A model generated the notes under the pieces. The model worked only from the letters and a program-made list of their open reading frames with translations. It was not told where the DNA came from and did not search any database. From contig CAYZFV010000166.1 of assembly GCA_964477765.1 (NCBI GenBank), positions 1 to 43,169 on the forward strand: a stretch of 43,169 bases of DNA. The letters run 5' to 3'. This stretch comes from an uncultured Candidatus Kuenenia sp. GTDB taxonomy: Bacteria > Planctomycetota > Planctomycetia > Pirellulales > UBA1268. A program made the position numbers and the translations under genes. How positions within the stretch are numbered: the first letter of the stretch is position 1; each line of letters begins with the position of its first letter. Of this stretch, positions 10,925-43,169 are shown piece by piece.

Positions 10925-10926
10925 GA

Positions 10927-13870: not shown

Positions 13871-13893
13871 CGCTTCCCGGCCCGCAGGCCGCC

Positions 13894-16946: not shown

Positions 16947-16964
16947 TCCCACCTTTGCTTCTGA

Positions 16965-20094: not shown

Positions 20095-20208
20095 AAGGGG
20101 ATTCGTCCACATGCACCGTAGACCGTATGCTTTTGATTCGACGGCCAGTGGTAGCGAACGGCGGCGTTAGAATCCGCTCCGGTCGCCTCAGTCTTGGTTT
20201 TTCGCACC

Positions 20209-21309: not shown

Positions 21310-21350
21310 ATGTCGTTGAGAAATTCTTCCATTCATGATACCATAATGGA

Positions 21351-24587: not shown

Positions 24588-25571
24588 TTACGGATGGCGG
24601 TCGCCCGGGCCGATCTGCTTGCGCACCAGATACAGCGGCCGGCCGATCACTTCCGTGTGGATGTGGCCGATGTAGAGGGCCACGAGGCCGATGCAGCCGA
24701 GCACGATGCCGTTCATGATCACATTGCTCACGATCACAAAGGCGATCGGCGAAAACCCAAAGGTGTTGCTGGCCAGTTTGTCGTAGGTCATAAACGCGAG
24801 CAGCCCGCCAAACACCACGATCACGAAAAACCCGATGTAGCCGGCCAGCTTCAGCGGCACGAGCGAAAACGCCATGAAGCTGTTGAGGGCCAGGCGGAAG
24901 AGCCGCGAATAACTGTAGCGGGCCGTGCCGGCGTGGCGGGCCGGGGCCTCGAATTCGATCGTCGTCCGCTTGTAGCCCATCCAGTCGATCAGGCCGCGGA
25001 AAAGCCGGTTGCGTTCGGTGAATCGCTTGAGGGCCTCCACCACCTTCCGGTCGAGGAGGCGGAAGTCGGTGGTGCCCGGCTCCATCTTGAATTCGGAGAT
25101 CGAATTGAGCAGCGAGTAGAAGAGCCGCGAGCCGAGCCGTCGGGCAAAGGGCTGCTCGTCGATTTTCACCCGCCGGGTCGACACCACCTCATAGCCTTGC
25201 TGCCATTTGGCGAGCAGCTCAGGGATGTAGCGGGGCGGATGCTGGAGGTCGGCATCCATAATGATCGCGGCGTCGCACTCGAGGGCCTGGAGGCCGGCGG
25301 TGAGGGCCATCTCCTTGCCGAAGTTGCGGGAGAGTTCGATCACGCCGATCCGCGGGTCGGCAGCCGCGGCCTGCTCGAGGATGGTAGCCGTGTCGTCGGT
25401 GCTGCCGTCGTCGACAAAGAGGATCGTGAAGTCGTAGTCAGGGAGCCCCGCGAGCGTGGCGGAGAGTTCGCGCAGCAGCGGAGCGATATTGGCCGCCTCA
25501 TTAAAGGCGGGAACGAGGATGGCGATGCGGCGCTGTGGCATGAGGGTTCTCCCAGCCGTCAGTATGCTCAC
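24588..25571 (-). CDS. GT2 polyprenyl-phosphate glycosyltransferase (GtrB/ArnC/Dpm1 type), intact copy
   Basis: IAILVPAFNEAANI, FVDDGSTDDT and MDADLQHPP motifs, plus two C-terminal TM helices (LVPLKLAGYIGFFVIVVFGGLLAF; IAFVIVSNVIMNGIVLGCIGLVALYI). The start is either GTG 25571 (GTGA overlap with the flippase stop) or ATG 25541. Confidence 0.9.
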   Translation of the reverse strand: MSILTAGRTLMPQRRIAILVPAFNEAANIAPLLRELSATLAGLPDYDFTILFVDDGSTDDTATILEQAAAADPRIGVIELSRNFGKEMALTAGLQALECDAAIIMDADLQHPPRYIPELLAKWQQGYEVVSTRRVKIDEQPFARRLGSRLFYSLLNSISEFKMEPGTTDFRLLDRKVVEALKRFTERNRLFRGLIDWMGYKRTTIEFEAPARHAGTARYSYSRLFRLALNSFMAFSLVPLKLAGYIGFFVIVVFGGLLAFMTYDKLASNTFGFSPIAFVIVSNVIMNGIVLGCIGLVALYIGHIHTEVIGRPLYLVRKQIGPGDRHP

Positions 25572-26848
25572 GCCACTTCATCGGAACCAGCGGCGGATCG
25601 AAACTCGGGCACCATGAGGATTCCGCCTATGACGGCCAGCATCGTGTTGAATGTCGCGATCGTGCCGATGACGGCATGGAGCGACGGGTGCCATGCTCGC
25701 AACACCGCCAATTCCCCAGCGGCCAAGGCCGCGACCACCCAGCAGAAGAAGGTCCGGCCCTTGGCCACCAAAAACCCTTGAATCACCATCGCCAAGGCCA
25801 TGGGCACCATGGCCAGACCGTAGACAGCAAGCAGGCTGCCCGCAGCGCCATATCTTTCACCGTACAGGACACGCACGAGCCAAGGGCCGGCGACGAAGTA
25901 GACGAGTGCGGCTGCCCCGCAAAGCAGGGCAGTGGCTCCGAGCGCCTGGGCAGCGTGGCCGGTGCCGCGTTCCCGTCGGGCATGGCTGGCGGCCACGATC
26001 GGCAGGATCGCGGTCACGAGCCCGCCGGGCAGGTAGAGGACCGCTTTGCCAAGAACTGAAGCCGGAGCGTATTGGCCGGCCGTGGCCGGATCGAAGAATC
26101 GGTTGACCAGCACCAAATCCATTTGCGTCATCGTGGTCAGCCCGATGACCGATGCCATGACCGGAGCGATCAACCGGAAGGGAAAGTCCGTCGCTGCCCC
26201 AACGCCTGGAGCCACACCGGCCCATCCTCGTGAAATCGCCCCCATGCTTCCGCCGAGAACGAGCAGCGTTGATGCGAGCACCCCGCCCAGCGCGCCGTGC
26301 AGCCCCTGCCGCAGCGACGCGACAAAGAACAGGCAGATTGCGATCTTCGCCACGACCCCGCCAAAGCCGAGCCCGCCGATCCATCCAAACGCCTGCAGTC
26401 CGCGGAGCACGGCGCCCGTGAGAATCGAGAGGGTCGTGGCGAGCACGATTCCTGCGAGTAGCCAGACACTTTCGACATCGGGAGCTTGCAGCCACTGGCG
26501 TACCTGTGGCCCGGCGACCATCACCGCCACCGCGACCACTCCGCAACCGGCCCAAAGCCATGTCGTCCAAGTGCGATAGAGCCGCCGAACACTGCCGCAC
26601 CCCTCCATCGCGGCCACATTCGCCACATGCCGCGCCGCAACCGTCTCCAGCGCGGTCATGGGCGAGCAGGCCACCATGCCCATCGCGAGGATGCCGTTGA
26701 AGGCGGCGTAGTCCTCGGCGGCGAGGGTGCGGCCCATCGCAACCTGAAATACGTAGCCCGAGACACCCGTGGCCACGTTGAGCGCGGTGAGCAAAAACCC
26801 CGCCCGCAGCACCTCGCTGCTTCGCCATGCCTGAAAAACGTTAAACAT
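25568..26848 (-). CDS. MOP/Wzx-type polysaccharide (oligosaccharide) flippase
   Basis: About 12 hydrophobic segments and a typical 426-aa length from the ATG at 26848 (MFNVFQAWRSS). It sits in a polysaccharide-locus context. Confidence 0.7.
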   Translation of the reverse strand: MFNVFQAWRSSEVLRAGFLLTALNVATGVSGYVFQVAMGRTLAAEDYAAFNGILAMGMVACSPMTALETVAARHVANVAAMEGCGSVRRLYRTWTTWLWAGCGVVAVAVMVAGPQVRQWLQAPDVESVWLLAGIVLATTLSILTGAVLRGLQAFGWIGGLGFGGVVAKIAICLFFVASLRQGLHGALGGVLASTLLVLGGSMGAISRGWAGVAPGVGAATDFPFRLIAPVMASVIGLTTMTQMDLVLVNRFFDPATAGQYAPASVLGKAVLYLPGGLVTAILPIVAASHARRERGTGHAAQALGATALLCGAAALVYFVAGPWLVRVLYGERYGAAGSLLAVYGLAMVPMALAMVIQGFLVAKGRTFFCWVVAALAAGELAVLRAWHPSLHAVIGTIATFNTMLAVIGGILMVPEFRSAAGSDEVA

Positions 26849-26873
26849 GCGTGCCGGCAGCAGCCGTCTTCGG

Positions 26874-28739
26874 CTACTCCTTGTCCAGCACAAAGCAGAC
26901 GAGGTCGCCCATCGGGCTTTCGATCGGCGGTTTCGTGTAGCCAAGCTGCTTCAGGGTTTCCTCGATGCCCTTACCACCGTCGGGATACCCGTTGCGGTTC
27001 ACATAGAGCCCCGAGAAGCCAAGCTCTCGGAGTTTCTGCACGCCGGCTTCGAAGTTTCGCGGATTGAGCTGGATTCGTTGCTTTTGCTGATCCAGGGCGG
27101 CGCCCGTAAAGGCCGCCTGCTCCCAGAGCTTCTGCCAGTTTCCACCTTTTCGACCCACGTTGCCTCCCACGGAGTATCGCAGCGAGGTGCTATAAAGCGA
27201 AGGCCTGAAATGATCGGACGCCGAGACGCCGGGCACCGGTCCGGCCGTTGTGACGGGCAGCTGAAACACCATGGCGTCTTTGGGCAGCGCAGCCTCCATG
27301 TTCGCCGTAAATTCCCGGTCGGCAGCCACCTGCGCCGCGATGGTCGCTTGCTGGTCGGCCGTGGGGGCCCGCGGCACTTGATCCCAGAGGATCACGGTGC
27401 ACATTCCCAAACAGGCGGTGGCCACGAGGATCCGCGATGTCTCCGCGGGAAACCGCTCCCGCATCTTTTCTTGCCAGCCCGTCAGTCGCTCCGCCGCGTA
27501 GAGCAGCACGATCGCGAGGATCACCACGCCATAGCGACACGTTGTGCGAAACAGCGTGAATCCGGTGAACGCAGCCACAGTCGCATTCAGCCCGCCGGTC
27601 GTGGCCATGAGCACGATCCAGAGCACCTGCCAGGCCGCCATTGGAATCTGCGACTCTCGTCGCTCGGCACCTATGCGAATAGCCGCCCACACGAGCGTCA
27701 GGAGCGAAGCGATGCCAAAGAGCCCGAGATACACGCATCCTTCCTCGTCGAGCAGCACAGAGGCCTCGCGATGTTGCGAGCCGAAGCGGGCAAATTCAGA
27801 GCACCGGTGCGTGATCCACGGCACGAACATATCAACGATCTTGAAGGCGTAGATATCAAGCCATCGATAGGCGCGGTCCACAAACGGGCTCTCGGTCGGC
27901 GGGCCGTAGATCCAGCGGTAGGAAAGCGTGTCGAGGTTGCTGATGAAAAAGGCGAGCGCGACGGCGCCCACGATTGCCATGGAGGGCAGGGCCGCCGCCC
28001 ACGATCGCTTGCGAAGCGCCAGCAATCCGCCACCGAGTAGCGCGAGTTGGCAGAAAACATTGCCAAAATAAGGATTCTGCAGCCCGGTCACGAAGCCAAT
28101 CGCCATCGCCTGCCAGAAGCGTCGCGAATTGATCTCTAGCCCCGGATCTGTCGACACCCACCGCCACACGGGCAGAAACAGCGGCACATACCAGACGTAT
28201 TGGCAAGTGTTGTGGTGAGGCGATTGGGCAAACTGATACGGCGCCAAGCCGAATGCCAATGCCGTGACGAATGCCCACGCCCTCCCGCACCGATTCAGTC
28301 GAGCGACAGCATAAAAGGTAAATCCTGCAGCAATATGTCCGAAAAGAACCCCCAGATTGAAGCCCGGGAACAACCCAAAAAATCGCACCATCAGCGCAAA
28401 AAAAGCCATGATCGGCTCGTCGGCGGAAAGTGCGTCAGTCCATTGAGCTCCATATGGCGCGCCGAACTTCGCACTTGCTTTCCACATGAATGGGGGGAAA
28501 TCACCTTCGGCCACCGCGCGAACCATGGCGCTGCCGCCTAAAAAATCGCTGTAGACGGGGTCCAGATAGGTCGTCGGCAAACCCCACGCCGATGCCGTCC
28601 ACTTGCCATGCGCCGCGCACCAAGCGAGCGTAGTTGTAGCGACAAGCAAGGCGATTGGAAGCAAGGCGATCGGTGAGGCATCTCCGCGTTTCACCGAACA
28701 GGAATCTCGCCTGCCAAAAAACTTATGGAAGAGTGTCAT
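26874..28739 (-). CDS. Large polytopic membrane protein with C-terminal soluble domain; possible GT-C-type glycosyltransferase
   Basis: 621 aa with more than 10 hydrophobic helices in the first ~450 aa. The C-terminal domain ends ...GFSGLYVNRNGYPDGGKGIEETLKQLGY...MGDLVCFVLDKE. The family was not recognised. Confidence 0.45.
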   Translation of the reverse strand: MTLFHKFFGRRDSCSVKRGDASPIALLPIALLVATTTLAWCAAHGKWTASAWGLPTTYLDPVYSDFLGGSAMVRAVAEGDFPPFMWKASAKFGAPYGAQWTDALSADEPIMAFFALMVRFFGLFPGFNLGVLFGHIAAGFTFYAVARLNRCGRAWAFVTALAFGLAPYQFAQSPHHNTCQYVWYVPLFLPVWRWVSTDPGLEINSRRFWQAMAIGFVTGLQNPYFGNVFCQLALLGGGLLALRKRSWAAALPSMAIVGAVALAFFISNLDTLSYRWIYGPPTESPFVDRAYRWLDIYAFKIVDMFVPWITHRCSEFARFGSQHREASVLLDEEGCVYLGLFGIASLLTLVWAAIRIGAERRESQIPMAAWQVLWIVLMATTGGLNATVAAFTGFTLFRTTCRYGVVILAIVLLYAAERLTGWQEKMRERFPAETSRILVATACLGMCTVILWDQVPRAPTADQQATIAAQVAADREFTANMEAALPKDAMVFQLPVTTAGPVPGVSASDHFRPSLYSTSLRYSVGGNVGRKGGNWQKLWEQAAFTGAALDQQKQRIQLNPRNFEAGVQKLRELGFSGLYVNRNGYPDGGKGIEETLKQLGYTKPPIESPMGDLVCFVLDKE

Positions 28740-28868
28740 CAGACGTCGTTTGCCGGCAAGAATCGCACCAGGCCCGGAAGACGCGCTGTGTGTAAGCCGG
28801 ACTGCCTCGTCCTCCGCCTTTTCATCCAGCCCGCAAGCCTGCAGGCTTCTTGATTGTTCACAACTTCC

Positions 28869-29702
28869 TCAGCCGCTGACAGACTCTCCAAATACGATTC
28901 TGATCTCCGGCCGATCAGGATCGTTGGGCGCATCGACTGGCAACGCATACCGCATACCATCCCAGAAACGACGGTCCGGCACAAGATCACGCCGTACGAG
29001 CGTCATCTCCAAGGCCTTTGGCAAGCCCGTCGAGGTTATCGCGCTGCAATTATTTACATGCACATGGCTGACGTCGTAGTGCTGCTGCAACCCCTTCGTG
29101 AGGCTGATGAAGTCCTCGTATCGCTCATCGATATCATGAAATTCAATAATTATCCCAACAATTGCAGCAGTAAACGGCAGAAGTGCCCCTAGGATGGAAT
29201 ACTCGGCCCCTTCGACATCCATCTTCACAATCACCGGGTTACGCAGCGTCGGCATCTCCAAGACATCACGAATAGAAACCGTATTACAAGATGCTTTGAT
29301 GCCGATAAACTTTGCCTGGTGCTGTACGCGGCTGTGGCCACGGTACGCGAGATACTCCAGCGGCTTTGCCAATGCCATCATGTGCTTTCGCTTTCGAGAG
29401 ATGGGTGAGTAAAGAAAGCGCGAGACGCCCCACCACAACGCCCGTGCGAACGACGTGGAACGATCAAAGCTTCTGATTTCGATGGCTGGAAAATGCCGCG
29501 CGACGTCTTGCTCAAATCTCCAGTCGAAATCAATTCCGCAACTCACAAGCGTTTCACTCGCCTCAAAAAGGCGCCGCGGCACCACATAGCCGCCGTCATT
29601 GGGGCTGCCAAACCGTTGCTGATCCTCCAGCACCACAGGTCGAAGAGATGAGGGCAATCTTGCCGTCAACTGCTGGGGGGCGTTCTGCGACACTTCAGGC
29701 AT
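28869..29702 (-). CDS. FkbM/Methyltransf_21-like methyltransferase
   Basis: VIVKMDVEGAEYSILGAL matches the FkbM-family hallmark. A start at the ATG at 29702 (MPEVSQ) is preferred. The upstream 133 codons of the track ORF look non-coding. Confidence 0.5.
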   Translation of the reverse strand: MPEVSQNAPQQLTARLPSSLRPVVLEDQQRFGSPNDGGYVVPRRLFEASETLVSCGIDFDWRFEQDVARHFPAIEIRSFDRSTSFARALWWGVSRFLYSPISRKRKHMMALAKPLEYLAYRGHSRVQHQAKFIGIKASCNTVSIRDVLEMPTLRNPVIVKMDVEGAEYSILGALLPFTAAIVGIIIEFHDIDERYEDFISLTKGLQQHYDVSHVHVNNCSAITSTGLPKALEMTLVRRDLVPDRRFWDGMRYALPVDAPNDPDRPEIRIVFGESVSG

Positions 29703-29998
29703 CTGAACCCTCTTCGACGAACCTTTCCTCGTGTAACCAATCGACGCCACAAAACGATCCCGCCCGCTGGCCGAACCGCACGTATCTGGGTGGACAATCT
29801 GTCGCCCGAACGAAGAAACATCGCTGGCCAGGAGTTGTCGTGAACACGGAACTTCCGAGCAAAGGCGGGATGGCTCCAACGCTAGAGCGCTATCTACCTT
29901 GTGAAATATTCCCCCTCTTTCACAAATCTCCTCCGTCGATTTTACGTCGGCTGTCGTGACGCCGCAACCAGCCCGACCCTGGCAACACACCGCAGGCG

Positions 29999-30877
29999 TC
30001 ATGTGCGACGGGCCAGCCACGCCCTGACGAGCATCCAAGACAGCCAAGCATAGTACCGGAGCATGTCGTGCGGGAGTCGGCGCTTGTAGCCGGACCGCCA
30101 TTCAGACTGGTGACGGTAGTGCATCTGAACAACGCACCGCAGCTGCGAATCCGGCACCAGTGCCTTCACGCCAATGAACCGAATCACATGGTCACCCCAG
30201 CGATGCCTCCAAATTCCTCCGGCTTCGTCGATGACTCGAAAAAACCCCTGCCACGGCTCCGACTGAAACCATGCCAGATCACAAATCTCAAAATTTGTGT
30301 AGAAGGCCCCGCATGGCGTCACCTCAGAAAACGGTCGAATGGCAGACGACGACTCGGTGAAATAGGCCTCGGCACGAGCCCACAGTCCCCTGCAATACTG
30401 TGGCTTGTCTTTCACAATCACGCGATACGCGTACCGATACGCATGTGTGCTCATGACTGCAAACACATTTTCCCGAAGAGGCGAGAGGATATAGGAATCA
30501 TCGTCCATCCTCATGTAGTACCTGTATCCCTCGAGCTCGGGTCGAAGGAAAATGTCGTTGGCGAAAAAATGGCACATATGCCGGTAGCCTCTCTGCTGCT
30601 TCGACAGTCCCTTCATCGCTTCCGGCACAGCCGTAAAATCCACACACGCGAAGCGCACACCAATGCCGGACGTGCGGCCATCGAGAATTGCGGGATTCAA
30701 GTCGGCCTCATGAAACACAACCACATCGGCGGGAGACCAGGGAAGAAAGTTTTTCGCAAGGAGCGCGAGGCTTTGCTCCAATTGCCTCACGCCTTGCTCG
30801 CTGCTGCGCGTCAGGTACACGACGACGCCGTTATTAGGCCCCATTCGTCCTTTTCTTCCCTCCACCAAAAGCGGCAC
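29999..30877 (-). CDS. GT15-like (Kre2/Ktr/Mnt1-type) alpha-1,2-mannosyltransferase homolog
   Basis: Collinear matches to yeast Kre2 blocks recalled from memory. [31 protein letters not shown] aligns with [76 protein letters not shown] aligns with [45 protein letters not shown]. There is no signal peptide or TM segment. Confidence 0.7.
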   Translation of the reverse strand: [292 protein letters not shown]

Positions 30878-30902
30878 GGGCTCGGTGTGGTCCGTTAATA
30901 TC

Positions 30903-31667: not shown

Positions 31668-32024
31668 GTGTGCTTTCGCGTTAGTGCTTGCGAATTGACG
31701 GACTGCGCTGGTCGTGAGCAGTCAATACTGACTCCTCATGACAACGAAGGAAATGGGGATCGCACGGAAGGCTAACACAAAAACGGGCATACCGCCGAGT
31801 AATTGGTGTCTGGGCTCGCAACCCCCCATTCCACGCGATTCGCGGACTCTCGCGCTGTCAGGGTTTTGGCACTTTGCATTGATTCCGTCACGCGGAACAT
31901 CATACCCGAAAATTCGTTTGGTATCATATGCGATGCTGTGCTACCTGTCCAAGGTCGGCCGCCGGCGTGTGTACTGCCTCCCCTGATAGTTGCACGGCTT
32001 TGGGCGCTGTTTGACGGAGCTAAA

Positions 32025-32819
32025 ATGAGAATGAATGATGGGCCAGCAGAGTGCGCCGTGGTCGTGATGTCATCCGATCGTTACGCCGATCTCTGGCCAA
32101 CCTTCTTCGACCGGTTTCGACAGTGTTGGCCGTCATGCCCCTACCCTGTCTTTCTCGGTAGCAATACGATCCAGCACCATGGCCATGACTTCGTCACCAC
32201 TTTGCTCAGCGGACCAGATCGGGACTGGTCGTCAAGCGCCCGAAAAATCATCACACAGATTCCGCAACCCTATCTCGTGGTTCTACTGGAAGACCTTCTC
32301 ATCACCGCCGACGTCGATTCGGCGGAGGTCGTTCAGGCAATCCATTCGATGCATCGCCATGGCTCGCGCCACATCCAACTGGCGTGCCGACTGCCAGCCG
32401 ACCACATCGATGCCGAAGGCTATGGCGTGATCCACCCCGGGGCTCCCTACCGGGTGAATGTCTGCGGACTCTGGCGGAAGGACGCATTCCTCGACCTCCT
32501 CATCGATGGCGAGTCTCCCTGGAATTTCGAGATCATGGGTTCGTATCGTTCTCGCTACGTCGGTGGCTTTCTTCGTGCCCGTCGCTCACCGATCCAACTG
32601 CTGAATCTCGTTGAAAAGGGTCTTTTCTTGCCGGCAGCCGTCGCCTACTGCCGCCGCAAGGACATTGCCCTGCCGCTGGAAACCCGCGGTACGCTCGGCG
32701 TACGGCAAGGGCTCGTGAGCTGGCTGCAGCGATGCTGGTTCCACACAGTCGTTCGTGTTCCGTGGCGGCTGCGCGTTTTCATGATGAATGTGTTGCGAAA
32801 ACTGCTCGTAAGCTATTAA
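32025..32819 (+). CDS. Hypothetical protein of the glycan locus (possibly GT-A-like)
   Basis: 264 aa from the ATG at 32025. It has coding-like composition and contains LVVLLEDLLI and ESPWNFEIMGSYR blocks. The family was not recognised. Confidence 0.45.
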   Translation: MRMNDGPAECAVVVMSSDRYADLWPTFFDRFRQCWPSCPYPVFLGSNTIQHHGHDFVTTLLSGPDRDWSSSARKIITQIPQPYLVVLLEDLLITADVDSAEVVQAIHSMHRHGSRHIQLACRLPADHIDAEGYGVIHPGAPYRVNVCGLWRKDAFLDLLIDGESPWNFEIMGSYRSRYVGGFLRARRSPIQLLNLVEKGLFLPAAVAYCRRKDIALPLETRGTLGVRQGLVSWLQRCWFHTVVRVPWRLRVFMMNVLRKLLVSY

Positions 32820-32973
32820 GCAAGCAAAAAGGGCTACTGCCGCCATAAGATTTAACAAATGAATCGTGTCCGTTTTCCCCTCCACACAATAAGACAGGTC
32901 CAACCCACCGAAACATATTTTCGGCAGACGAATTACCCTTTCAAGTTTTCACTAAGACATTGGATAAGAAATC

Positions 32974-35221: not shown

Positions 35222-35229
35222 GGCGGCTC

Positions 35230-35880: not shown

Positions 35881-35903
35881 GGCGAGGGTGACGGCCGGGC
35901 GGG

Positions 35904-36941
35904 CTATCGCAGCGTGCTGCGGAAAGCGCGACGGGTGAAAAAGCCTTTCAGAAACGTGAATCCGTAGACCAGATGCGAGCAGTAGATCGTCAGGATCGTG
36001 AGGGACCCCAGAGCCGGGTTCGCCGTCCGGCTGAACACATCGACCGTCGCTATGCCGAAGTATACCAGCATCAACATGCCGTAGATCTTCCAGAAGATGG
36101 GCCACACAAAGCCTGCGACAACGAGCGCTACCGAACCAAGGAGGAAAAGGCTCGGCACGAAATAGGCGGGCCGGGCGGACGTCTCGGGGAGGATGAGGGC
36201 GAAGTGGCCGCGGTGGCGACCGTAGTTGCCGACCTGCCGCATATGGAGCGCCAGCCGCGGCCGCCGGTGGTGAAAGACGACTACGTCCGGGCTGTACCAG
36301 ATCGTGTAGCCGGCCTTGACGAGGTCAAGGCAGAGCTTCGTGTCTTCACCGGGCCAGTAGGCGTTGTCGAAGCCGCCCACGGCCAGGAAAGCCCGCTTGG
36401 AGACCAGAAAATTCACGGTGGGATAGTCGTCGACCGGAAACGCCTTCTTCGCCGGCCGGTAGCGATATTCCATGCCACCGCCGCCAATGAGCGTCTCGAA
36501 AAAGAGGCCCGACGCCTGCTCGAAGAGCGGACTGCCGGGGGGCGTGATGCCGGGGCCGCCGATTGCTGCGGCGCCGGTGTCGCGAAAGGCCTTCTCGGCC
36601 TGACGGAGCCAATCGGCCTGCGGATAGGCATCGTCGTCGAGGAAGGCGAGGCGGTCGAACCGTGCCCGCTCAGCGCCGAGATCGCGCTTGATCGCCGGGC
36701 TCACCGGGCCGGTGGGCGCGATGGCGACCCGCGGATCCTCCGTCCATGCAGGAAGATCTCCCTGCGGCGGATCGTTTGGCAGGATGATTACCTCGAACGC
36801 GTCGTAGTCGATCGCCAAGACGATCGGGATCGCCTCCCGCAAATAGGAGTTGATCGCCTTCACCGGTATGATCACGCTGAAGCCGCGGTCCGCCGGCAGC
36901 GGCTGCGGAGGGGCACTGTCGATGCCGATCGTTTCCATCAT
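35904..36941 (-). CDS. Glycosyltransferase family 2 with C-terminal TM helices
   Basis: FSVIIPVKAINSY, LAFLDDDAYP and a C-terminal hydrophobic region. The start is ATG 36941 or 36938; the track ORF starts at TTG 36953. Confidence 0.85.
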   Translation of the reverse strand: MMETIGIDSAPPQPLPADRGFSVIIPVKAINSYLREAIPIVLAIDYDAFEVIILPNDPPQGDLPAWTEDPRVAIAPTGPVSPAIKRDLGAERARFDRLAFLDDDAYPQADWLRQAEKAFRDTGAAAIGGPGITPPGSPLFEQASGLFFETLIGGGGMEYRYRPAKKAFPVDDYPTVNFLVSKRAFLAVGGFDNAYWPGEDTKLCLDLVKAGYTIWYSPDVVVFHHRRPRLALHMRQVGNYGRHRGHFALILPETSARPAYFVPSLFLLGSVALVVAGFVWPIFWKIYGMLMLVYFGIATVDVFSRTANPALGSLTILTIYCSHLVYGFTFLKGFFTRRAFRSTLR

Positions 36942-37746
36942 CGTCACAACCAAGAACGAGAGCAGGAATATCGTCGCGTGCCTGGAGAGCGTGCGACGGC
37001 AGACATTTTCAGACTACGAGATCATCGTCGTCGACAACGCCTCCACCGACGATACCAAGGATCTCGCCAGACGCTACACGGAGAAGGTTTTTGACCTCGG
37101 CCCGGAACGGAGCGCCCAGCGAAACTTCGGGGTGTCGCGGGCCACGGGCACCTACATTCTTTATCTCGATGCCGACATGATCCTTGAGCCGGACGTGGTG
37201 GCGGAATGCGTCGATATCTGCCGGAACAACCCCCGGGTCGCCGGCATCTACATCCCGGAGCAGATCGCGGGCACGGGGTTTTGGATCAAGGTGCGGGCGT
37301 TCGAACGCGGCTTTTACAACGGGACGGTGATCGATGCGGTGCGGTTCTTGCCGAAGCGGGTATTCGACCAAGTCGGCGGGTTTGACACCAGCATGTGCGG
37401 CCCAGAAGACTGGGACTTCGACAAGAAAATCCGCATGGCGGGCGATGTCGTCGTGGCCCGGTCGAAGGTGATGCACAATGAAGGCGCGTTCAGCCTGTCA
37501 CGGTACCTCGCCAAGAAGGCCTATTACGCCGGGAGTTTTGACGCGTATGTGCGCCGCTGGGGAGCCACTGACCCAGACGTGAGGAAACAGCTGGGGCCGT
37601 TCTACCGCTATGTCGGCGTGTTCGTGGAACGGGGCAAGTTCTGGCGGCTGCTGCGGCATCCGATCCTCGCGGCCGGCATGTATTGGCTGCGGCTGATGGT
37701 GGGCCTGCGGTATCTGCGGGTGAAGATGGCAAGCCATGCTCGTTGA
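36922..37746 (+). CDS. Glycosyltransferase family 2
   Basis: MPIVSIIVTTKNESRNI, VVDNASTDDT and YLDADM. Confidence 0.85.
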   Translation: MPIVSIIVTTKNESRNIVACLESVRRQTFSDYEIIVVDNASTDDTKDLARRYTEKVFDLGPERSAQRNFGVSRATGTYILYLDADMILEPDVVAECVDICRNNPRVAGIYIPEQIAGTGFWIKVRAFERGFYNGTVIDAVRFLPKRVFDQVGGFDTSMCGPEDWDFDKKIRMAGDVVVARSKVMHNEGAFSLSRYLAKKAYYAGSFDAYVRRWGATDPDVRKQLGPFYRYVGVFVERGKFWRLLRHPILAAGMYWLRLMVGLRYLRVKMASHAR

Positions 37747-38173
37747 TGGAGCGCCGGAAGCGAAACCGCTCGATCTCAAGGGAGACGTTTTTGCCAGAGT
37801 ATGCGTGGCCCGAAAAGCGCTCCTGTCGCTGCCCTGTGTCGTCCAAAGGATGACCACGTGGCGTGCGAATCTCCACTCTTCACAAGGCGCCAGCGGCGAA
37901 GTGCTCAACTGGCAGAAGGCAGTGCAGGAACGGCTCTTTCGCGGCGCGGAAATCGATCGGCAGCGGGAGGAGATTCGGCTCTTTGAGGCCAATGCGGCAC
38001 AGGCCGTCGATGAGATGAAGGCCAAGGGCTTCGCCGCGCTGTATGTGAATCGCAACGGCTATCCCGATGGCGCGAAGGGGCTGCGCGACGCGCTCGCAAA
38101 GCTCGGCTACACCGAAGTGATCGACAGCCCCGCCGGCGACCTGATGGCCGTTGTACTGCGAAAGGGCGGCTGA
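37736..38173 (+). pseudogene. C-terminal remnant of a paralog of the 621-aa membrane protein (26874-28739)
   Basis: GFAALYVNRNGYPDGAKGLRDALAKLGY...AGDLMAVVLRKGG aligns with GFSGLYVNRNGYPDGGKGIEETLKQLGY...MGDLVCFVLDKE. The entire TM region is absent and there is no signal peptide. Confidence 0.6.
38130..38173 (+). repeat. 44-bp direct repeat, left copy (3' end of the remnant gene)
   Basis: CCGCCGGCGACCTGATGGCCGTTGTACTGCGAAAGGGCGGCTGA matches 38810-38853 at 40/44 positions. Confidence 0.9.
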
Positions 38174-38185
38174 CCGGCATGTGGT

Positions 38186-38201
38186 GCAGGCTTTAGCCTG
38201 C
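38186..38201 (+). repeat. Family-1-like hairpin
   Basis: GCAGGC-TTTA-GCCTGC lies 13 nt after the stop at 38173. Confidence 0.6.
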
Positions 38202-38298
38202 GAGTATGGCCGCCTTTCCAAGCAAAACCTTGACACCTGGGTGTTCGCCCGTATACCCTAAATGCCTGAAGGCAAATCCAACGAAATCGAGGTGAGCG

Positions 38299-38529
38299 AT
38301 GGAAATCGAAAGTTTTATTGACACCTTGAACCCCGAGGAGCAGCAGGCAGCCTTTGATCTGCTTTGGCAACGCTTGGCCGCTGATTCGCGAAAATTGGAT
38401 TCTCCCGCTTGGCACGGAGAACTGCTTGCATACCGTGCAGCGAATCCTAGTGATCAGCCCAATATGTCTGTCGCCGAGGCGCGGAACGCAGTGAGACGGA
38501 TTGTCGATGAACGTAGAAGTTCGCCATGA
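38299..38529 (+). CDS. Addiction-module antitoxin (Unstab_antitox-like)
   Basis: MEIESFIDTLNPEEQQAAFDLLWQRLAAD...SPAWHGELLAYR. Confidence 0.65.
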   Translation: MEIESFIDTLNPEEQQAAFDLLWQRLAADSRKLDSPAWHGELLAYRAANPSDQPNMSVAEARNAVRRIVDERRSSP

Positions 38530-38824
38530 GGCACATTTGGATATCGCCGAAGGCGTTGCCTTCTACGACCAGCAAGGTTTCGGCGCTGGTGACTATTTTT
38601 ACCAACGGATCTTCGAGGACATTGAATCACTGGGTGAGACGGCTGGCATTCATGAAATCTATTTTGGTTACCATCGCAAAATCGCAAGTCGCCATCCTTT
38701 TCTGATTTACTACCGTTTGGTCACAACAGGTGTCGAAGTAGTCGCTGTCCTTGATGGACGGTCGCGGCCCTCCGATATCGACGCGTTGCTCCAACGCAGG
38801 CAGCCCACTCCGCCGGCGACCTGA
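38501..38824 (+). CDS. ParE/RelE-superfamily toxin
   Basis: VRHEAHLDIAEGVAFYD...RKIASRHPFLIYYRLVTTGVEVVAVLDGRSRP. The stop codon lies inside the right 44-bp repeat. Confidence 0.7.
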   Translation: MSMNVEVRHEAHLDIAEGVAFYDQQGFGAGDYFYQRIFEDIESLGETAGIHEIYFGYHRKIASRHPFLIYYRLVTTGVEVVAVLDGRSRPSDIDALLQRRQPTPPAT

Positions 38825-38853
38825 TGGCCGTGGTGCTGCGAAAGGGCGAGTGA
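38810..38853 (+). repeat. 44-bp direct repeat, right copy
   Basis: CCGCCGGCGACCTGATGGCCGTGGTGCTGCGAAAGGGCGAGTGA still reads PAGDLMAVVLRKGE-stop in frame. Confidence 0.9.
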
Positions 38854-38860
38854 TGCCCAG

Positions 38861-39005
38861 CAAGCCGCAGGGCGCGAGCCCGCGGGCCAACGCGCCACCC
38901 GACGCCGGCGCAGTCCACCGGGCTCGCGCCTCGGTGCTTGCTGGTGGAGGGCTCGCGCCCTGCGGTTGTTGGCGGGACGAGCCACCAGGCTTGCGCCCGG
39001 TGCTT
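38861..39005. repeat. Cluster of four REP-like hairpins (B+, A-, B- partial, A-)
   Basis: The units are at 38861-38888, 38913-38939, 38947-38965 and 38980-39005. Confidence 0.85.
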
Positions 39006-39147
39006 GTTGGCGGGGCGATTCCGGGGCTTGCCCGCAACGGCACCGTGCGGATCAACCGCCCGGCAGGGTGGACGGCATTTTGCTCGGCAGAGATGACCTG
39101 AGGACGAACGGCTGACATCTTGCTGCACGCAGAATACATATATATGC

Positions 39148-39387
39148 ATGAGGACGACGATTGACATCAACGATCGCCTGCTTGCCGCTGCCCGCCGCCG
39201 CGCCACCGAAGACGGCACCACGCTCACGGCGTTTATTGAGCACGCCCTTGCCGCGTGCCTGACCCGCCACCCAGCTTCCGCCAAGCCCTGTCGACTCGCC
39301 TGGAAGACCCACCGCGGCCGGACGCTACCCGGCGTGGATGTGGCTGACCGCGACCGTCTCTTCGAGCAGATGGAAGGGCGGTCGTGA
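39148..39387 (+). CDS. vapB: VapB-type antitoxin
   Basis: MRTTIDINDRLLAAARRRATEDGTTLTAFIEHAL. GTGA overlap with the PIN gene. Confidence 0.75.
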   Translation: MRTTIDINDRLLAAARRRATEDGTTLTAFIEHALAACLTRHPASAKPCRLAWKTHRGRTLPGVDVADRDRLFEQMEGRS

Positions 39388-39827
39388 TCGCCGTCGATAC
39401 CAACATCCTCATCTACGCCAATCGTGAAGAGTCGATTTCCCATGCCGCTGCGTTGAAGGCCTTGCGGTTCTTGGCCGAGCGTGATGAGGCTTGGGCGATC
39501 CCGGTTTTCTGTATCGATGAGTTTCTCCGGGTTGTCTCGCATGATCGCCTGTTCGATCCGCCGACGCCCGTCCTGCATGCGCTGGATTCGCTCGAGTCGC
39601 TGCTTTCCAGCCCGTCAGTGCGGCTCTTGATACCAGGCGACCACTACCTGCGGCTGCTGCGGACCCTGGCTGAGGAGTCGGGCGTGCGGGGCAATCTGAT
39701 TTTCGATGCCCAGATTGCTGCGGTCTGCCTCGAGCATGGAGCGACCATGCTGCTGACAGAAGATCGAGACTTCACGAGATTCCGGAACCTGAAGCCACTG
39801 TTGCTGCAAGAGTTTCACGACCGTTGA
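39384..39827 (+). CDS. vapC: PIN-domain ribonuclease toxin
   Basis: IAVDTNILIYA, FDAQIAAVC and LLTEDRDFTRF. GTG start. Confidence 0.85.
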   Translation: MIAVDTNILIYANREESISHAAALKALRFLAERDEAWAIPVFCIDEFLRVVSHDRLFDPPTPVLHALDSLESLLSSPSVRLLIPGDHYLRLLRTLAEESGVRGNLIFDAQIAAVCLEHGATMLLTEDRDFTRFRNLKPLLLQEFHDR

Positions 39828-39852
39828 CGGACCGCCTACGGGCCCGCTTCAG

Positions 39853-39905
39853 CAAGCCGAAGGACGCGAGCCTCCCCGGCAAGCCGCAGGGCGCAAGCCC
39901 GCGGG
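39853..39905 (+). repeat. REP family B: one degenerate plus one good unit
   Basis: CAAGCCGAAGGACGCGAGCCTCCCCGG is the degenerate unit. AAGCCGCAGGGCGCAAGCCCGCGGG (39881-39905) is the good one. Confidence 0.75.
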
Positions 39906-40107
39906 ACGACCCACCAGCCGGCCATCTATGCGACGCCAGCGGCAGACTCGTGAAGGGGCAACGGATCGTGGCCGAGCCGACGGGGACGCGGGCTTGACGA
40001 GAATGGTGTTCATAAGTCCACATTTGGGGATCGTCCTGGTTGGTTTCGAGCGTGACAGAGAGGCGGCCCTGTCCTACACTCATCTCCCCACGCGAGGGGA
40101 TTTTCTG

Positions 40108-41850
40108 ATGAACAAGGAAAGGTTGCTCGAACGACTGCTCCAGGCGATCGTGCTTGTGCTCGCCGGCCTGTGGATCTACTCGCCCACCTACCATGGCAAA
40201 TGGTTGTGGGACGACGACAGCCTTGTCACCAAAAACCCCGAGGTTTTGTCGGGTTCGCTCGAAGGCCTTTTCGCGATCTGGATGAACCCATCCGGCTTCG
40301 ATTATTTCCCCCTTACGTATTCAGCCCTCTGGATGCAGGCACTATTTTTCGGCACTCAGCCCACTGGCTACCACATCGTCACAATCCTGCTCCATCTCAC
40401 CAGTGGCCTCCTGCTCTGGTGGCTCCTGGCCAGAATCAATGTCCCGGGCGCCTGGGTGGCGTCGCTGATCTTCACCATCCATCCGGTCTGCGTGGAGAGC
40501 GTCGCCTGGATTTCAGAAACCAAGAATACGCTGTCGCTCGTGTTCTTTCTGGGCTCCTGCATCTTCTGGGTGAAGCAAGACGACGAGACGCCAGGACGCC
40601 GCCGTGAACGTCTCTACCTCGCATCGCTCGTCCTGTTTCTTTTGGCGATGCTCGCCAAGACATCGGTCGTGGCCATGCCCCTGTTGACGCTCCTTTACGC
40701 CTGGTGGAAACGAAATACCGTCACCAGTCAGGACATCATCCGGGCTTCCCCCATGTTTTTGATCTCTCTCGTGCTGGGCATCATCACGATCCAATATCAA
40801 TGGGGTCGCGCCGTCGGCTCGGAAACGTTTCCCATCGGCGGCATCGGATCCCGACTCGCGATCGCTGGCATGGCAATGATGTTTTATCTGGCCACGACCA
40901 TCTGGCCGATCCGACTCCTGCCGATCTACCCACGGTGGGATGTCGATCCACCCAAGGCCTGGCAATTTTTGCCGTGGCTCCTCGTCGGTGCCGGGATTTT
41001 CTGGCTCTGGAAACATCGGGACACGACGTGGGGCCGCGCTGCGATCCTTGCCTTCGGCTTCTTTCTCCTCATGATCTCGCCGGTCCTCGGATTCGTGGAC
41101 TTTTCTTTCATGCGATTGACGTGGGTCGCCGACCACTTTCTCTACCTCCCCATGATCGGACCGATCGCGCTGCTGGTGGCCGCTGCGACGACGTGGATTG
41201 AAACACGAGACGACCAGACGCGGGCCGTGTTTACCGCGCTGGTCGCCGGCATCATGCTCTTTCTGGGTCTGAACTCGTTTTTCTATGCAAACAAGTGGAT
41301 TGATGAGGAGCACCTCTGGGAGCACACGCTCGCGATCAACCCAGACGCGTGGCAGGCCCACAGCCGGGTGGGAGTCCAAAAACTCAACCGCAATGACATC
41401 GAGGGGGCGTATTACCACTTCACCGAGGCTGCGCGGCTACGACCCGATGTGGGCGAGACCATGAACAACCTTGCTCTGATTCTGGCAAGAAAGGGCCGGC
41501 CGGATGAGGCGATCGCGGCCTATGAGCGCGCGGTGGCGATCTCCCCCGTACCCGCCATACGGGCGAATCTTGCCGATCTTTGCCTTGAACTGGGGCACTA
41601 CGCCGAGGCTCGATTCCACTATGAGGAACTCCTCAAGGCCATGCCAGACAATCCTTTCGTGCTCCATAAGCATGCCTTGGCCCTCTTCAATCTCGGGGAG
41701 AAGGACATGGCAATCCGGGAATTCCGCCGCGTGCTCGAGATCGCCCCCAGCCACAAGGAAGCAGCGGAAAGCCTGAAAGTAGCGGTTGCCAAACGGGCGG
41801 CTGAAACCGCGTCCGAGACCAAAGAAAAACCCTCCGAGGCGATTGAGTGA
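40108..41850 (+). CDS. TMTC-like GT-C glycosyltransferase with C-terminal TPR repeats (paralog 1)
   Basis: Start at MNKERLLERLLQAIVLVLAG. Acidic loop KWLWDDDSLV, a DUF1736-like IHPVCVESVAWISETKNTLS block, about 10 TM segments, then TPR repeats (AYYHFTEAARLRPD..., AIAAYERAVAISP...). Confidence 0.75.
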   Translation: MNKERLLERLLQAIVLVLAGLWIYSPTYHGKWLWDDDSLVTKNPEVLSGSLEGLFAIWMNPSGFDYFPLTYSALWMQALFFGTQPTGYHIVTILLHLTSGLLLWWLLARINVPGAWVASLIFTIHPVCVESVAWISETKNTLSLVFFLGSCIFWVKQDDETPGRRRERLYLASLVLFLLAMLAKTSVVAMPLLTLLYAWWKRNTVTSQDIIRASPMFLISLVLGIITIQYQWGRAVGSETFPIGGIGSRLAIAGMAMMFYLATTIWPIRLLPIYPRWDVDPPKAWQFLPWLLVGAGIFWLWKHRDTTWGRAAILAFGFFLLMISPVLGFVDFSFMRLTWVADHFLYLPMIGPIALLVAAATTWIETRDDQTRAVFTALVAGIMLFLGLNSFFYANKWIDEEHLWEHTLAINPDAWQAHSRVGVQKLNRNDIEGAYYHFTEAARLRPDVGETMNNLALILARKGRPDEAIAAYERAVAISPVPAIRANLADLCLELGHYAEARFHYEELLKAMPDNPFVLHKHALALFNLGEKDMAIREFRRVLEIAPSHKEAAESLKVAVAKRAAETASETKEKPSEAIE

Positions 41851-43169
41851 GCGCCGCAGCGAGTCTCTCTGGCGAGCGGTGCGTGGGCCGCACGCCGCTT
41901 ATCAAAGCAACCGTGATCGTGTTGCTCGGCTTTGCGGTCTTTACCCCCGCCATGCACGGCGCCTTGCTACACGACGATCCTGTCTTCATCAGCGGCAACG
42001 AAGCGGTTCGCACAGGCTCCTGGGGCCGGATGTTCCTGCTCTGGCTCGAGCCGACGGAAGTCGACTACTTCCCGCTCAGCTACACGGCATTTTGGGTGCT
42101 CCGTGGGTTGTTTGGCGTTGAAACCACCGGGTATCACGTCGCGACGATGCTCCTGCATGTCGCCAACGGCCTGCTGCTCTGGAACCTTTTGGCGAGACTC
42201 AAGATCCCCGGCCCATGGTTTGCAGCTCTCACCTTCACCATCCACCCGGCCTGCGTGGAAAGTGTGGCCTGGATCTCGGAGTTGAAGAACACGCTCTCGC
42301 TGCTGCCCTTCCTTGCATCCTGCATCTGCTGGGTGATGCAGGATGAAGCCACCGAGGGCTCACGGCAAAAATGGCTCTGCTTTGCGGCCTATTTTCTCTT
42401 TCTGGTGTCTATGCTCGCCAAGCCGGCGGCCGTCGCGATGCCCGTTGTCACGCTCCTCTACGCCTGGTGGAAGCGCGATCGAATCGACGGCCGCGACATC
42501 GTGCATGCCGTACCGCTCTTTCTCATCTCGATCGTGCTCGGAATCGTCGCGATTCAGTTTCAGCATGGCCGGGCCATCGGCCTGGAAAAATTGCCGCTGG
42601 GGGGAATCGATTCGCGGATCGCGCTCGCCGGCATGGCGATCCTCTTCTATCTCGCCACCATTTTCTTTCCGGTCAACCTCTTGCCGATTTACCCGGCATG
42701 GCCGATCGATCCGCCGCAGCTCTGGCAGTTTCTGCCATGGCTGATCATCGTCGGAGCGGCATGGTCGATGTGGAAAAACCGATCCACGTGGGGCCGCCAT
42801 GCCATCTTTGCCTTTGGATTCTTCCTGCTCATGATCGCGCCGGTGGTGGGATTCGTGGGCATCGCGTGGATGAGGCTCACCTGGGTGGCTGACCACTTCC
42901 TCTATATCGCGATGATCGGGCCGCTCACGCTCTTCGTGGCGGCGGCGGCTTCGTGGATCAACGAGGGCACTGCCCGGCGGCGGCTGGTCGGCTTCCTGGC
43001 CGGGGCCGCCATGACGGCGTTCCTCGCCATCAACACGTTTTCGTATGCCGGCCAGTGGGTCGACGAGGATCACCTTTGGGAATACACGGTGGCCCACAAC
43101 GACAGTGCCTGGATCGCCCATGACCGGCTCGGCGCCTTGAAACTCAAACGCGAAGACTACGATGGGGCC
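41847..43169 (+). CDS. TMTC-like GT-C glycosyltransferase, paralog 2 (partial, runs off the window; not in the ORF track)
   Basis: The frame is open for 441 codons from GTG 41847 (GTGA overlap with the upstream stop) to the window end. The hand translation is collinear with paralog 1. LLHDDPVFI aligns with LWDDDSLV, IHPACVESVAWISELKNTLS with IHPVCVESVAWISETKNTLS, LTWVADHFLYIAMIGP with LTWVADHFLYLPMIGP, and WVDEDHLWEYT with WIDEEHLWEHT. Confidence 0.8.
   Translation, partial: MSAAASLSGERCVGRTPLIKATVIVLLGFAVFTPAMHGALLHDDPVFISGNEAVRTGSWGRMFLLWLEPTEVDYFPLSYTAFWVLRGLFGVETTGYHVATMLLHVANGLLLWNLLARLKIPGPWFAALTFTIHPACVESVAWISELKNTLSLLPFLASCICWVMQDEATEGSRQKWLCFAAYFLFLVSMLAKPAAVAMPVVTLLYAWWKRDRIDGRDIVHAVPLFLISIVLGIVAIQFQHGRAIGLEKLPLGGIDSRIALAGMAILFYLATIFFPVNLLPIYPAWPIDPPQLWQFLPWLIIVGAAWSMWKNRSTWGRHAIFAFGFFLLMIAPVVGFVGIAWMRLTWVADHFLYIAMIGPLTLFVAAAASWINEGTARRRLVGFLAGAAMTAFLAINTFSYAGQWVDEDHLWEYTVAHNDSAWIAHDRLGALKLKREDYDGA

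Follow-up and report, generated by a model that had tools for sequence, protein, structure and literature searches.

A conserved array of putative TMTC-like glycosyltransferases beside a variable glycan-building cassette in an uncultured planctomycete

The stretch of DNA analysed here (the window) comprises 43,169 nucleotides of contig CAYZFV010000166.1 from an uncultured Candidatus Kuenenia sp. (GenBank assembly GCA_964477765.1). It is a high-GC planctomycete contig, and its left half holds planctomycete-specific families (DUF1501, DUF1552, DUF1559 and PSD/PSCyt) and a two-component system. The right half was found to carry a cluster of glycosyltransferase (GT), methyltransferase and membrane protein genes, followed by two tandem genes for proteins that combine a GT-C-type membrane domain with tetratricopeptide repeats (TPR), here designated GT-C/TPR proteins (Table 1). 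Gene boundaries in this region were drawn from GC3 (GC content at third codon positions), Pfam matches and the JGI calls on contigs identical to the window. The products were compared with the Pfam and NCBIfam profile libraries and with the PDB, and AlphaFold2 (AF2) models were compared by Foldseek. None of the genes received an equivalog-level name in the NCBIfam scan. The genes named in the initial annotation, which had been made from the DNA letters, were largely found, though it had omitted the flavin reductase, the GT2 genes at 35904-36941 and 36922-37746, the VapBC pair and the gene remnant. Profile and PDB matches agree with its GT2 and GT15 families, whereas the GT-C/TPR membrane domains and the polytopic proteins poly621 and poly426 have no Pfam match.

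Table 1 Features of the right half of the window, in window coordinates. aa, amino acids; ORF, open reading frame; TM, transmembrane; SAM, S-adenosylmethionine.
Feature	Position	Strand	Basis
GtrB-type polyprenyl-phosphate hexose synthase (GT2, 317 aa)	24588-25541 (JGI call; ORF 24588-25571)	-	Pfam, PDB, TM helices
poly426, polytopic 426-aa membrane protein, candidate flippase for lipid-linked sugar	25568-26848	-	Position, hydrophobic segments
poly621, polytopic 621-aa protein, candidate user of lipid-linked sugar	26874-28739	-	Family, gene context
FkbM-like methyltransferase, 377 aa, C-terminal part only matching	28869-30002	-	PF05050, 28.3 bits (cut-off 22.7)
Soluble GT15-like GT-A glycosyltransferase, 281 aa	29999-30844 (JGI call; ORF 29999-30877)	-	PF01793, PDB
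FkbM-family methyltransferase, 254 aa	30903-31667	-	PF05050 E=8.8e-12; TIGR01444 E=1.7e-17
264-aa protein, no known family	32025-32819	+	Travels with GT15-like genes
Class-I SAM methyltransferase, 227 aa	32974-33657	+	Methyltransf_23, 34.9 bits (cut-off 27)
B12-binding radical SAM enzyme, 530 aa	33629-35221	-	Radical_SAM E=3.6e-14; B12-binding domain
Ferredoxin-NADP-reductase-like flavoprotein, 216 aa	35230-35880	-	FAD_binding_6 and NAD_binding_1; BenC, MmoC, Fpr matches
GT2 with C-terminal TM helices, 345 aa	35904-36941	-	Glyco_trans_2_3 E=3.4e-12; MftF and EpsD-like matches
Soluble GT2, 274 aa	36922-37746	+	PF00535 E=3.2e-26; NCBIfam GT2 matches of exopolysaccharide type
145-aa remnant, C-terminal domain of array-preceding poly6xx gene	37736-38173	+	Alignment
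VapB/VapC (PIN) toxin-antitoxin pair, between cassette and array	39148-39827	+	Pfam on gene calls of identical contigs
GT-C-fold/TPR glycosyltransferase 1, 615 aa; 11 TM, WLWDDD in external loop 1, periplasmic TPR	40003-41850	+	AF2, Foldseek
GT-C-fold/TPR glycosyltransferase 2, cut by window end (571 aa in full)	41847-43169	+	55% identical to gene 1

Both GT-C/TPR proteins of the window have strong TPR matches in Pfam. When the full-length alignment of their family was compared with Pfam, TPR families drowned other signals, and the full-length AF2 model of the first protein (pLDDT 88.8) returned TPR proteins only in Foldseek; the membrane domain was hence modelled again alone (pLDDT 81.3, pTM 0.86). 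All matches of this second model at probability 1.0 were GT-C enzymes (yeast Stt3, ArnT, Pmt4, AftD, Pmt1/2), with TM-scores up to 0.57, and AftA was also among its matches. The AF2 helices fit a topology in which 11 TM helices place the TPR domain outside, the hydrophobic helix 246-265 being taken as a loop helix like the JM3 helix described for TMTC (PMC7801869). The external position of the TPR domain is supported by the positive-inside rule, since lysine and arginine make up 15 of 64 residues (23%) in the cytoplasmic loops versus 9 of 150 (6%) in the external ones. With this topology, the loop-1 DD(D) motif, a periplasmic TPR domain and a modelled GT-C fold, the description of the two genes as tandem TMTC-like GT-C/TPR enzymes in the initial annotation holds.

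Alignments of the family displayed WLWDDD as an invariant motif of loop 1, together with HPxxVES (loop 2), a lysine (loop 3) and ADHFxY (loop 5). D35 is invariant across nine aligned paralogues and D36 within the window-type subfamily, while the loop-1 D35, the HP..E motif, K184 and D342..Y346 are conserved both in window-type proteins and in distant array paralogues. As for the motifs of TMTC, M1 (DD) is present within WLWDDD, M4 (KE(T/Q)xxT) reads K184-T-S, with the Lys kept and the Glu lost, and M7 (ERxxY) reads D342-H343-x-x-Y346, with His in place of Arg. Canonical TMTC-like motifs (FAVHPxxTEAV, SKExGI, LCADYG and AADRYLYLP) were found in the distant array paralogues L018:8422-9996 and L008:14697-16376, and sub-threshold matches of distant array paralogues to TMTC_DUF1736 (E=1e-3 and 0.036) and Mannosyl_trans4 (E=7e-6) were also recorded. 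The PMT_2 threshold is passed by P0111, a homologue at 53% identity (35 bits, cut-off 26.1). Judging from the models, the TM/TPR proteins are GT-C-clan enzymes with the TMTC architecture; their subfamily is divergent and gives no match to the DUF1736 model of Pfam.

The GT-C/TPR family has more than 2,665 homologues and occurs at no fewer than 599 metagenome loci, frequently in arrays. The relatives found in the metagenome scan were mostly 30-40% identical and those of the close clade were L025, L026 and L027, so that synteny was quantified as far as these. Among distant TM/TPR GT-C relatives from soil, peat and freshwater (about 25-40% identity; L031, L037, L047, L098 and others), tandem arrays of four to six genes are common.

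Three JGI contigs (L020, L021 and L022) match the window at 99.95% identity over 10.9-13.2 kb, and L020 extends 8.7 kb past its right end. In L020 the array comprises four GT-C/TPR paralogues (615, 571, 568 and 565 aa) and is followed by a convergent gene for a 254-aa GT2 (L020:14741-15505), about 5.9 kb beyond the right end of the window; the continuation past the window end corresponds to L020:9535-15505, and FUR, DJ-1 and ribonucleotide reductase genes come next. The closest solved structure to the 254-aa GT2 is a dolichyl-phosphate-mannose (Dol-P-Man) synthase, 5mlz (E=1.4e-21), versus E=3e-7 for ArnC, and the protein is referred to here as the DPMS-like GT2 (DPMS, Dol-P-Man synthase). The expectation of a Dpm1-like gene in the company of the TMTC-like enzymes was therefore right insofar as a DPMS-like GT2 is a conserved neighbour of the array, but this gene lies outside the window and is not the GT2 at 24588 to which the part had been given.

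The order of a poly6xx gene (the family of poly621), one to four GT-C/TPR genes and a convergent GT2 of about 253 aa was found in L008, L017, L018, L019 and L020, the last being the continuation of the window. It was counted in six of the seven close relatives that could be assessed; array and GT2 were seen in L027, poly6xx stands beside the array in L025, the contig of which ends before the GT2 position, and the order is not present in L026. Upstream of poly6xx the content differs from genome to genome and includes GT4, GT61, FkbM, dTDP-sugar or heptose-pathway genes, with none of them in L018.

In L008, the segment 11884-14693 between poly6xx and the GT-C/TPR genes encodes GmhB-, GmhA- and HldE-like Pfam domains (HAD; SIS; PfkB with CTP_transf_like), which suggests a heptose-nucleotide pathway. 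These genes deserve attention because O-linked methylated and oligo-heptose glycans were reported on the S-layer protein of an anammox planctomycete (bioRxiv 10.1101/2020.12.03.409086).

At the other end of the cluster, the GtrB-type GT2 is the last gene of a conserved operon of its own, in which it follows poly621 and poly426. The same order is repeated on another contig, where the poly6xx gene P0238 (599 aa) is followed by a 424-aa gene, matched to poly426 by position, size and its lack of a Pfam match, and by a 317-aa GT2. The GT2 of the window matches Glycos_transf_2 (PF00535) with E=1.5e-31 and its closest solved structure is GtrB sll0501 (5ekp, E=7e-62 over residues 16-317), with ArnC at E=6e-37 and Pyrococcus DPMS (5mlz) at merely 8e-15. 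Motifs DDGSTDD and DADLQH and two C-terminal TM helices (242-260 and 276-294) were recognised, and the top NCBIfam match is PgfS of S. mutans (1e-69), under the cut-off of that model. Of the GtrB/Dpm1-type polyprenyl-phosphate sugar synthase proposed at first, the GtrB part is retained and the Dpm1 part is not.

Poly426 has at least nine hydrophobic segments. No Pfam match at E≤10 and no PDB match were found for it, and its sole match, to SpoVB (TIGR02900), is weak and sub-threshold (E=9e-4; 18 bits, cut-off 372), so that the label of MOP flippase given to it at first is unproven. In poly621 the first external loop is long, and the C-terminal domain, of about 170 aa, is soluble. Its family is Planctomycetia-wide, with at least 597 homologues and a Pfam domain in none of them, and its alignment has D65, H176, R289, K300, D303 and H311 among the invariant residues; relatives adjoin GT-C/TPR arrays in L008, L017, L018, L019 and L025. 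A possible GT-C enzyme, as had been proposed for this large polytopic protein, is suggested by its topology, its gene context and the presence of the invariant D65 in the long first loop. Poly621 is indeed polytopic, and its GT-C status is unproven, as there is no Pfam match and comparison of its profile with the PDB and with the profile of the GT-C/TPR membrane domain (hhalign) disclosed no similarity. The JGI label 'phosphoglycerol transferase' was dismissed for poly621, which lacks a sulfatase/LTA-synthase domain and has a soluble part of just about 170 aa. The candidate roles of poly426 and poly621 in Table 1 are taken from position, and by analogy with known systems the three genes may constitute a self-contained second lipid-sugar module.

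The GT15-like protein matches PF01793 with 88.6 bits (cut-off 25, E=6.5e-25), the alignment covering profile positions 151-324 only, and its PDB matches are Ktr4 (7e-15) and Kre2/Mnt1 (3e-10). In the alignment with Ktr4, Y98 corresponds to the Tyr of YxxMC, D125 and D127 belong to a DxDS motif that replaces the fungal EPD/N, and the C-terminal H256, NFE and RWGD also align; the motifs GYRHMCHF, R-x-D-x-D-S, YTNFE, RWGD and HYxH are conserved in the family. No TM helix, signal peptide or hydrophobic segment was predicted in its 281 aa, so that the type-II membrane anchor and stem of Kre2/Mnt1 are missing and the enzyme is predicted to be cytoplasmic. The assignment to a soluble, Kre2/Mnt1-like GT15 family was thus correct, and extension by it of O-linked mannose on periplasmic proteins is not supported.

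A word-indexed search gave 71 clusters of relatives, all of 190-315 aa, the close bacterial ones being of 250-300 aa. An exhaustive profile search widened the subfamily to 576 representatives at E≤1e-30, long multi-domain proteins included. Among its matches (P0363, P0314, P0319 and P0332), a protein of the annelid Owenia fusiformis is 29% identical across the whole domain and has the D-D-D-S motif in common, and metagenomic proteins of 1,000-1,680 aa carry two to four GT15-like stretches. A cytoplasmic GT15-like subfamily, as predicted from sequence, is thus common to bacteria of the PVC (Planctomycetes-Verrucomicrobia-Chlamydiae) group and some eukaryotes such as this annelid, and GT15 would not be purely a Golgi family. 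No paper on bacterial GT15 was found in the literature.

A scan of 185,579 species genomes gave seven GT15 loci, in Kiritimatiellaeota, Verrucomicrobia, two uncultured bacteria (isolates UMGS1035 and RUG11810) and two distant Burkholderiales. No GT-C/TPR or GtrB-type gene was present within 10 kb of GT15 at any of the seven, and conversely no GT15 gene was present at the 80 GT-C/TPR metagenome loci that were examined. One homologue from a gut-type genome, P0141, sits in an ordinary polysaccharide cluster with GT2, GT4 and epimerase genes. From this distribution, the GT15-like enzyme of the window is taken not to be part of the GT-C/TPR system. The gene that does accompany GT15 is that of the 264-aa protein, for which neither a Pfam nor a PDB match was found. 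Its homologues adjoin GT15 genes in planctomycete L004 and lie within about 2-3 kb of GT15-like genes in Kiritimatiellaeota (L011:7740-8486) and in the uncultured isolate RUG11810 (L012:12622-13377). The 264-aa protein and GT15 may therefore be partners in function.

The remaining genes of this part of the locus encode modifying enzymes and two further GT2s. Four methyltransferases had been counted at first; Pfam identifies three SAM methyltransferases, two of FkbM type and one of class I, in addition to the B12-radical-SAM enzyme. The FkbM-like protein at 28869-30002 has a homologue 58% identical at the same position in L004. Distant NCBIfam relatives of the radical SAM enzyme are of mixed chemistry (HpnJ, BchE, PhpK, HpnR and AprD4), and from sequence it is possibly a C-methylase or a sugar-modifying enzyme, for which the adjacent flavoprotein is likely the electron donor.

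Several observations indicate that the locus is a mosaic. The module consisting of the FkbM-like, GT15-like, FkbM, 264-aa and class-I methyltransferase genes, at 28-34 kb, has a GC content of 0.535-0.56, versus 0.60-0.69 elsewhere in the window. In L004 this module is 52-69% identical and the adjoining radical SAM gene (L004:97-1641) 92.5% identical, a sharp break that suggests cassette exchange. The 145-aa remnant is 68-70% identical to the last approximately 105 residues of the syntenic poly6xx proteins (L017 and L019), versus 48% to the intact poly621; therefore the resident poly6xx gene must have lost about 1.4 kb from its 5'-end. The cassette brought an intact paralogue, poly621, in operon with poly426 and the GtrB-type GT2, and apparently displaced most of the array-adjacent poly6xx gene. 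At the site equivalent to that of VapBC, L019 carries HicAB. No tRNA genes or Rfam elements were found at the cassette borders. The GT15-like and GtrB-type genes thus lie beside the array because a variable cassette of lower GC content was inserted there.

To the left of the cassette, between 17.5 and 24.5 kb, lies an island of at least four toxin-antitoxin-like pairs, with DUF4160/DUF2442 occurring twice and MazE/PIN at 21351-22054, and an NTP_transf_2 nucleotidyltransferase gene at 18247-18666. The island also contains two partial copies of the GtrB-type GT2 gene. The copy at 19549-20097 shares 91.5% identity with residues 36-224 and corresponds to a called gene of 230 aa (19420-20112), and the copy at 20837-21312 shares 79% identity with residues 95-327. 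At the left edge of the island, on the minus strand, stands a NusG-like paralogue of 187 aa (16965-17528) with a weak match to Pfam NusG; it was considered as a cluster regulator of RfaH/UpxY type and dismissed, being downstream, not upstream, of the minus-strand glycan genes.

Taking these data together, the locus is best explained as a variable glycan-building cassette joined to a conserved core of GT-C/TPR array and DPMS-like GT2 that works in a Dpm1/TMTC-like manner, an explanation to which we give slightly better than even confidence; a conserved periplasmic glycosylation core of this type is in itself plausible. The fold and family assignments, topology, synteny and mosaic structure come from the analysis itself, and the donor sugar, the acceptor, the flipping step and any glycan fed by cassette and core together are inferred. 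The core, starting at about 40.0 kb, would consist of the four paralogous GT-C/TPR enzymes and the convergent soluble GT2 of Dpm1/DPMS type. At the cytoplasmic face, the latter would use a nucleotide sugar to charge polyprenyl phosphate with a hexose, of which mannose is the most likely, and the polyprenyl-phosphate hexose would then be flipped. Each GT-C/TPR paralogue would move a single sugar to a periplasmic acceptor by means of the loop-1 Asp and the loop-3 Lys, the acceptors probably being proteins selected by the TPR domain, as with Dpm1 and TMTC1-4 or with TfpW of Pseudomonas. The strain-variable cassette (24.6-37.7 kb) would contribute the lipid-sugar module of the GtrB-type GT2, together with cytoplasmic enzymes for the assembly and methylation of a glycan, namely the GT15-like GT-A enzyme, two GT2s, two FkbM-type and one class-I methyltransferase, and the B12-radical-SAM enzyme with its reductase. 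The acceptor of the GT15-like enzyme would be located in the cytoplasm, lipid-linked or otherwise intracellular, and would not be an O-mannosylated protein.

Several results weigh against this explanation. The GT-C/TPR membrane domains of the window gave no match to PMT_2, TMTC_DUF1736 or any other Pfam GT-C family even at E≤10, none was found among PDB sequences with either the single sequence or the profile, and the E-values of the Foldseek matches are modest, around 1e-3. Two TMTC ligand motifs, those of loops 3 and 5, are changed in the window subfamily. In NCBIfam the DPMS-like GT2 also resembles PpgS, AglJ and GalNAc/hexose transferases, for which reason mannose is not established as the sugar, and distant arrays (about 25-40% identity) have no recognisable DPMS-like gene within 10 kb. 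As TPR domains also scaffold polysaccharide export (BcsC, PgaA), they do not imply a protein acceptor. Within the window, no initiating phosphoglycosyltransferase, Wzx/Wzy or ABC exporter was recognised for the cassette glycan, and the predictions for this locus rest on sequence and models.

One alternative explanation is that the locus serves a polysaccharide or lipid glycan, such as lipopolysaccharide O-antigen or core, capsule, exopolysaccharide or a heptan, with the GT-C/TPR enzymes and poly621 adding side-branch sugars and the TPR domain acting as a scaffold. Comparisons may be drawn with GtrV, which acts on O-antigen, with ArnT, which acts on lipid A, and with MptA/B/C and Ppm1, which act on lipomannan; synthesis of the last employs several GT-C enzymes in sequence and one polyprenyl-phosphate-mannose (PPM) synthase; sequential GT-C paralogues fed by one such synthase would follow the same logic here. 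Related loci carry GT4, dTDP-sugar and heptose genes (GmhA, HldE, GmhB-like) beside the core, the cluster around the GT15 homologue P0141 is of polysaccharide type, and ArnT, AftD and AftA are among the Foldseek matches. However, the known GT-C enzymes directed at glycans or lipids (GtrV, ArnT, Mpt, Emb) have no TPR domain, while the GT-C/TPR enzymes that have been characterised, TMTC and TfpW, act on proteins; furthermore, the core of L018 has no adjoining polysaccharide genes, and a polymerase, an exporter and an initiating transferase all went unrecognised in the window. We regard this alternative as rather unlikely, though it is the main rival.

Two other alternatives concern the relation between cassette and core. 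In the initial annotation, all parts within the 18.6 kb had been joined in one integrated, eukaryote-like O-mannosylation pathway, in which the GT2 at 24588 makes polyprenyl-phosphate mannose, the TMTC-like enzymes transfer it to proteins, GT15 extends the O-linked mannose with alpha-1,2-linked mannose and the methyltransferases decorate the product. The enzyme classes named are all present, and the names that JGI gives to relatives include 'protein O-mannosyl-transferase' and 'alpha 1,2-mannosyltransferase', so that the parts list was largely right; it is the wiring into a single pathway that fails, and we find it highly improbable. Nucleotide sugars are absent from the periplasm, and the GT15-like enzyme, being cytoplasmic and dependent on a nucleotide sugar, would therefore by compartment logic be unable to extend sugars added there. 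GT15 loci lack GT-C/TPR and GtrB genes and conversely, the GT2 at 24588 is of GtrB type and belongs to its own conserved operon, the conserved GT2 partner of the array is a different gene outside the window, and a toxin-antitoxin pair and a gene remnant separate cassette from array. These last features, with the two partial GT2 copies and the at least four toxin-antitoxin-like pairs at 17.5-24.5 kb, the lower GC content of the cassette and the fact that its content differs in every related genome, would suit a juxtaposition devoid of functional meaning, in which an independent cassette and an independent array share a recombination hotspot rich in toxin-antitoxin genes and fragments. This we consider very unlikely, since variable glycan genes lie directly upstream of poly6xx and array in at least four independent genomes, in the manner of an anchored glycan-diversity locus comparable to O-antigen loci, and the intact poly6xx paralogue of the cassette is found exactly where the resident one was destroyed.

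The explanation by a Dpm1/TMTC-like core with a variable cassette has a near precedent in eukaryotic DPM1 and TMTC1-4 (GT105), which act in protein O-mannosylation in the endoplasmic reticulum. Common features are a soluble DPMS-type GT2 of about 250 aa beside 11-TM GT-C enzymes, the motifs of external loops 1 to 3 (DD, HP..E and Lys, respectively), a TPR domain at the C-terminus that faces away from the cytoplasm, and the number of four paralogues. In contrast to TMTC, the window proteins have no TMTC_DUF1736, with KE(T/Q) replaced by KT in loop 3 and ER..Y by DH..Y in loop 5; the planctomycete genes are clustered and have poly6xx as an extra conserved partner, and the cadherin-type substrate of eukaryotes has no bacterial counterpart. 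Bacterial TMTC-like proteins are not new, full-length prokaryotic homologues of TMTC having already been noted (PMC7801869). TfpW of Pseudomonas aeruginosa (646 aa) has 11 TM helices and a DDX motif, resembles ArnT in its membrane domain and carries its TPR domain in the periplasm; it O-glycosylates pilin from a polyprenyl-monophosphate sugar (bioRxiv 10.1101/2020.04.19.049825). Compared by description, it resembles the GT-C/TPR proteins of the window in size (about 600-650 aa), number of TM helices, loop motif and periplasmic TPR domain, but the tfpW gene adjoins pilA and a D-arabinofuranose pathway, whereas here there are a DPMS-like GT2, four paralogues and no pilin gene. In actinobacteria, Ppm1 with Pmt (GT39) or MptA/B/C provides a likeness in that a polyprenyl-phosphate-mannose synthase feeds several periplasmic GT-C enzymes; these differ in having no TPR domain, and the PMT family signature of Pmt is not matched by the window proteins.

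As for the cassette, a GtrB/PgfS-type GT2 in operon with two polytopic proteins recalls the synthase, flippase and transferase logic of GtrA/GtrB/GtrV, CsbB/GtcA/YfhO, ArnC/ArnE-F/ArnT and S. mutans PgfS, although poly426 is not a small flippase of the GtrA/EmrE type and poly621 matches no known GT-C family. The bacterial GT15-like enzymes differ from fungal Kre2/Mnt1/Ktr also in standing in polysaccharide-type clusters.

No paper connecting Planctomycetes with TMTC was found, nor was an earlier description of the conserved planctomycete order of poly6xx, array and DPMS-like GT2, of the poly6xx family, or of the cytoplasmic PVC-group GT15-like subfamily. The DPMS-like synthase and TMTC-like array would be candidates for the machinery that attaches the methylated, heptose-rich O-glycans of planctomycete surface proteins. 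TMTC-like enzymes are common among bacteria, often in arrays that hold up to six genes, and apart from TfpW they are essentially uncharacterised, so that one locus in which the partner supplying the donor is defined would make the family accessible to study, and poly6xx, without a Pfam model and located beside lipid-sugar synthases, is a candidate new class of membrane enzymes. A bolder proposal is that Planctomycetia carry genuine protein O-mannosylation that is homologous, and not just analogous, to the eukaryotic Dpm1-TMTC system. A synthase of DPMS type would serve as many as four GT-C/TPR paralogues, each specialised for its acceptors, with poly6xx as a new, obligatory membrane partner and a hypervariable glycan cassette alongside. 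This is doubtful and, in our estimate, unlikely; if true, it would explain the O-glycans found on surface proteins of planctomycetes and would be relevant to the bacterial ancestry of O-mannosylation in the endoplasmic reticulum.

Further to the left, the window holds a PSD/PSCyt cytochrome-like gene at 5083-7755, a DUF1552 gene at 7662-8942 and a DUF1559 gene with an N-terminal methylation motif at 8945-9958. A LuxR-type response regulator and its histidine kinase are encoded at 10160-12609, a DUF1501 gene lies at 12575-13936, and a 1,110-aa ORF occupies 13894-17226.

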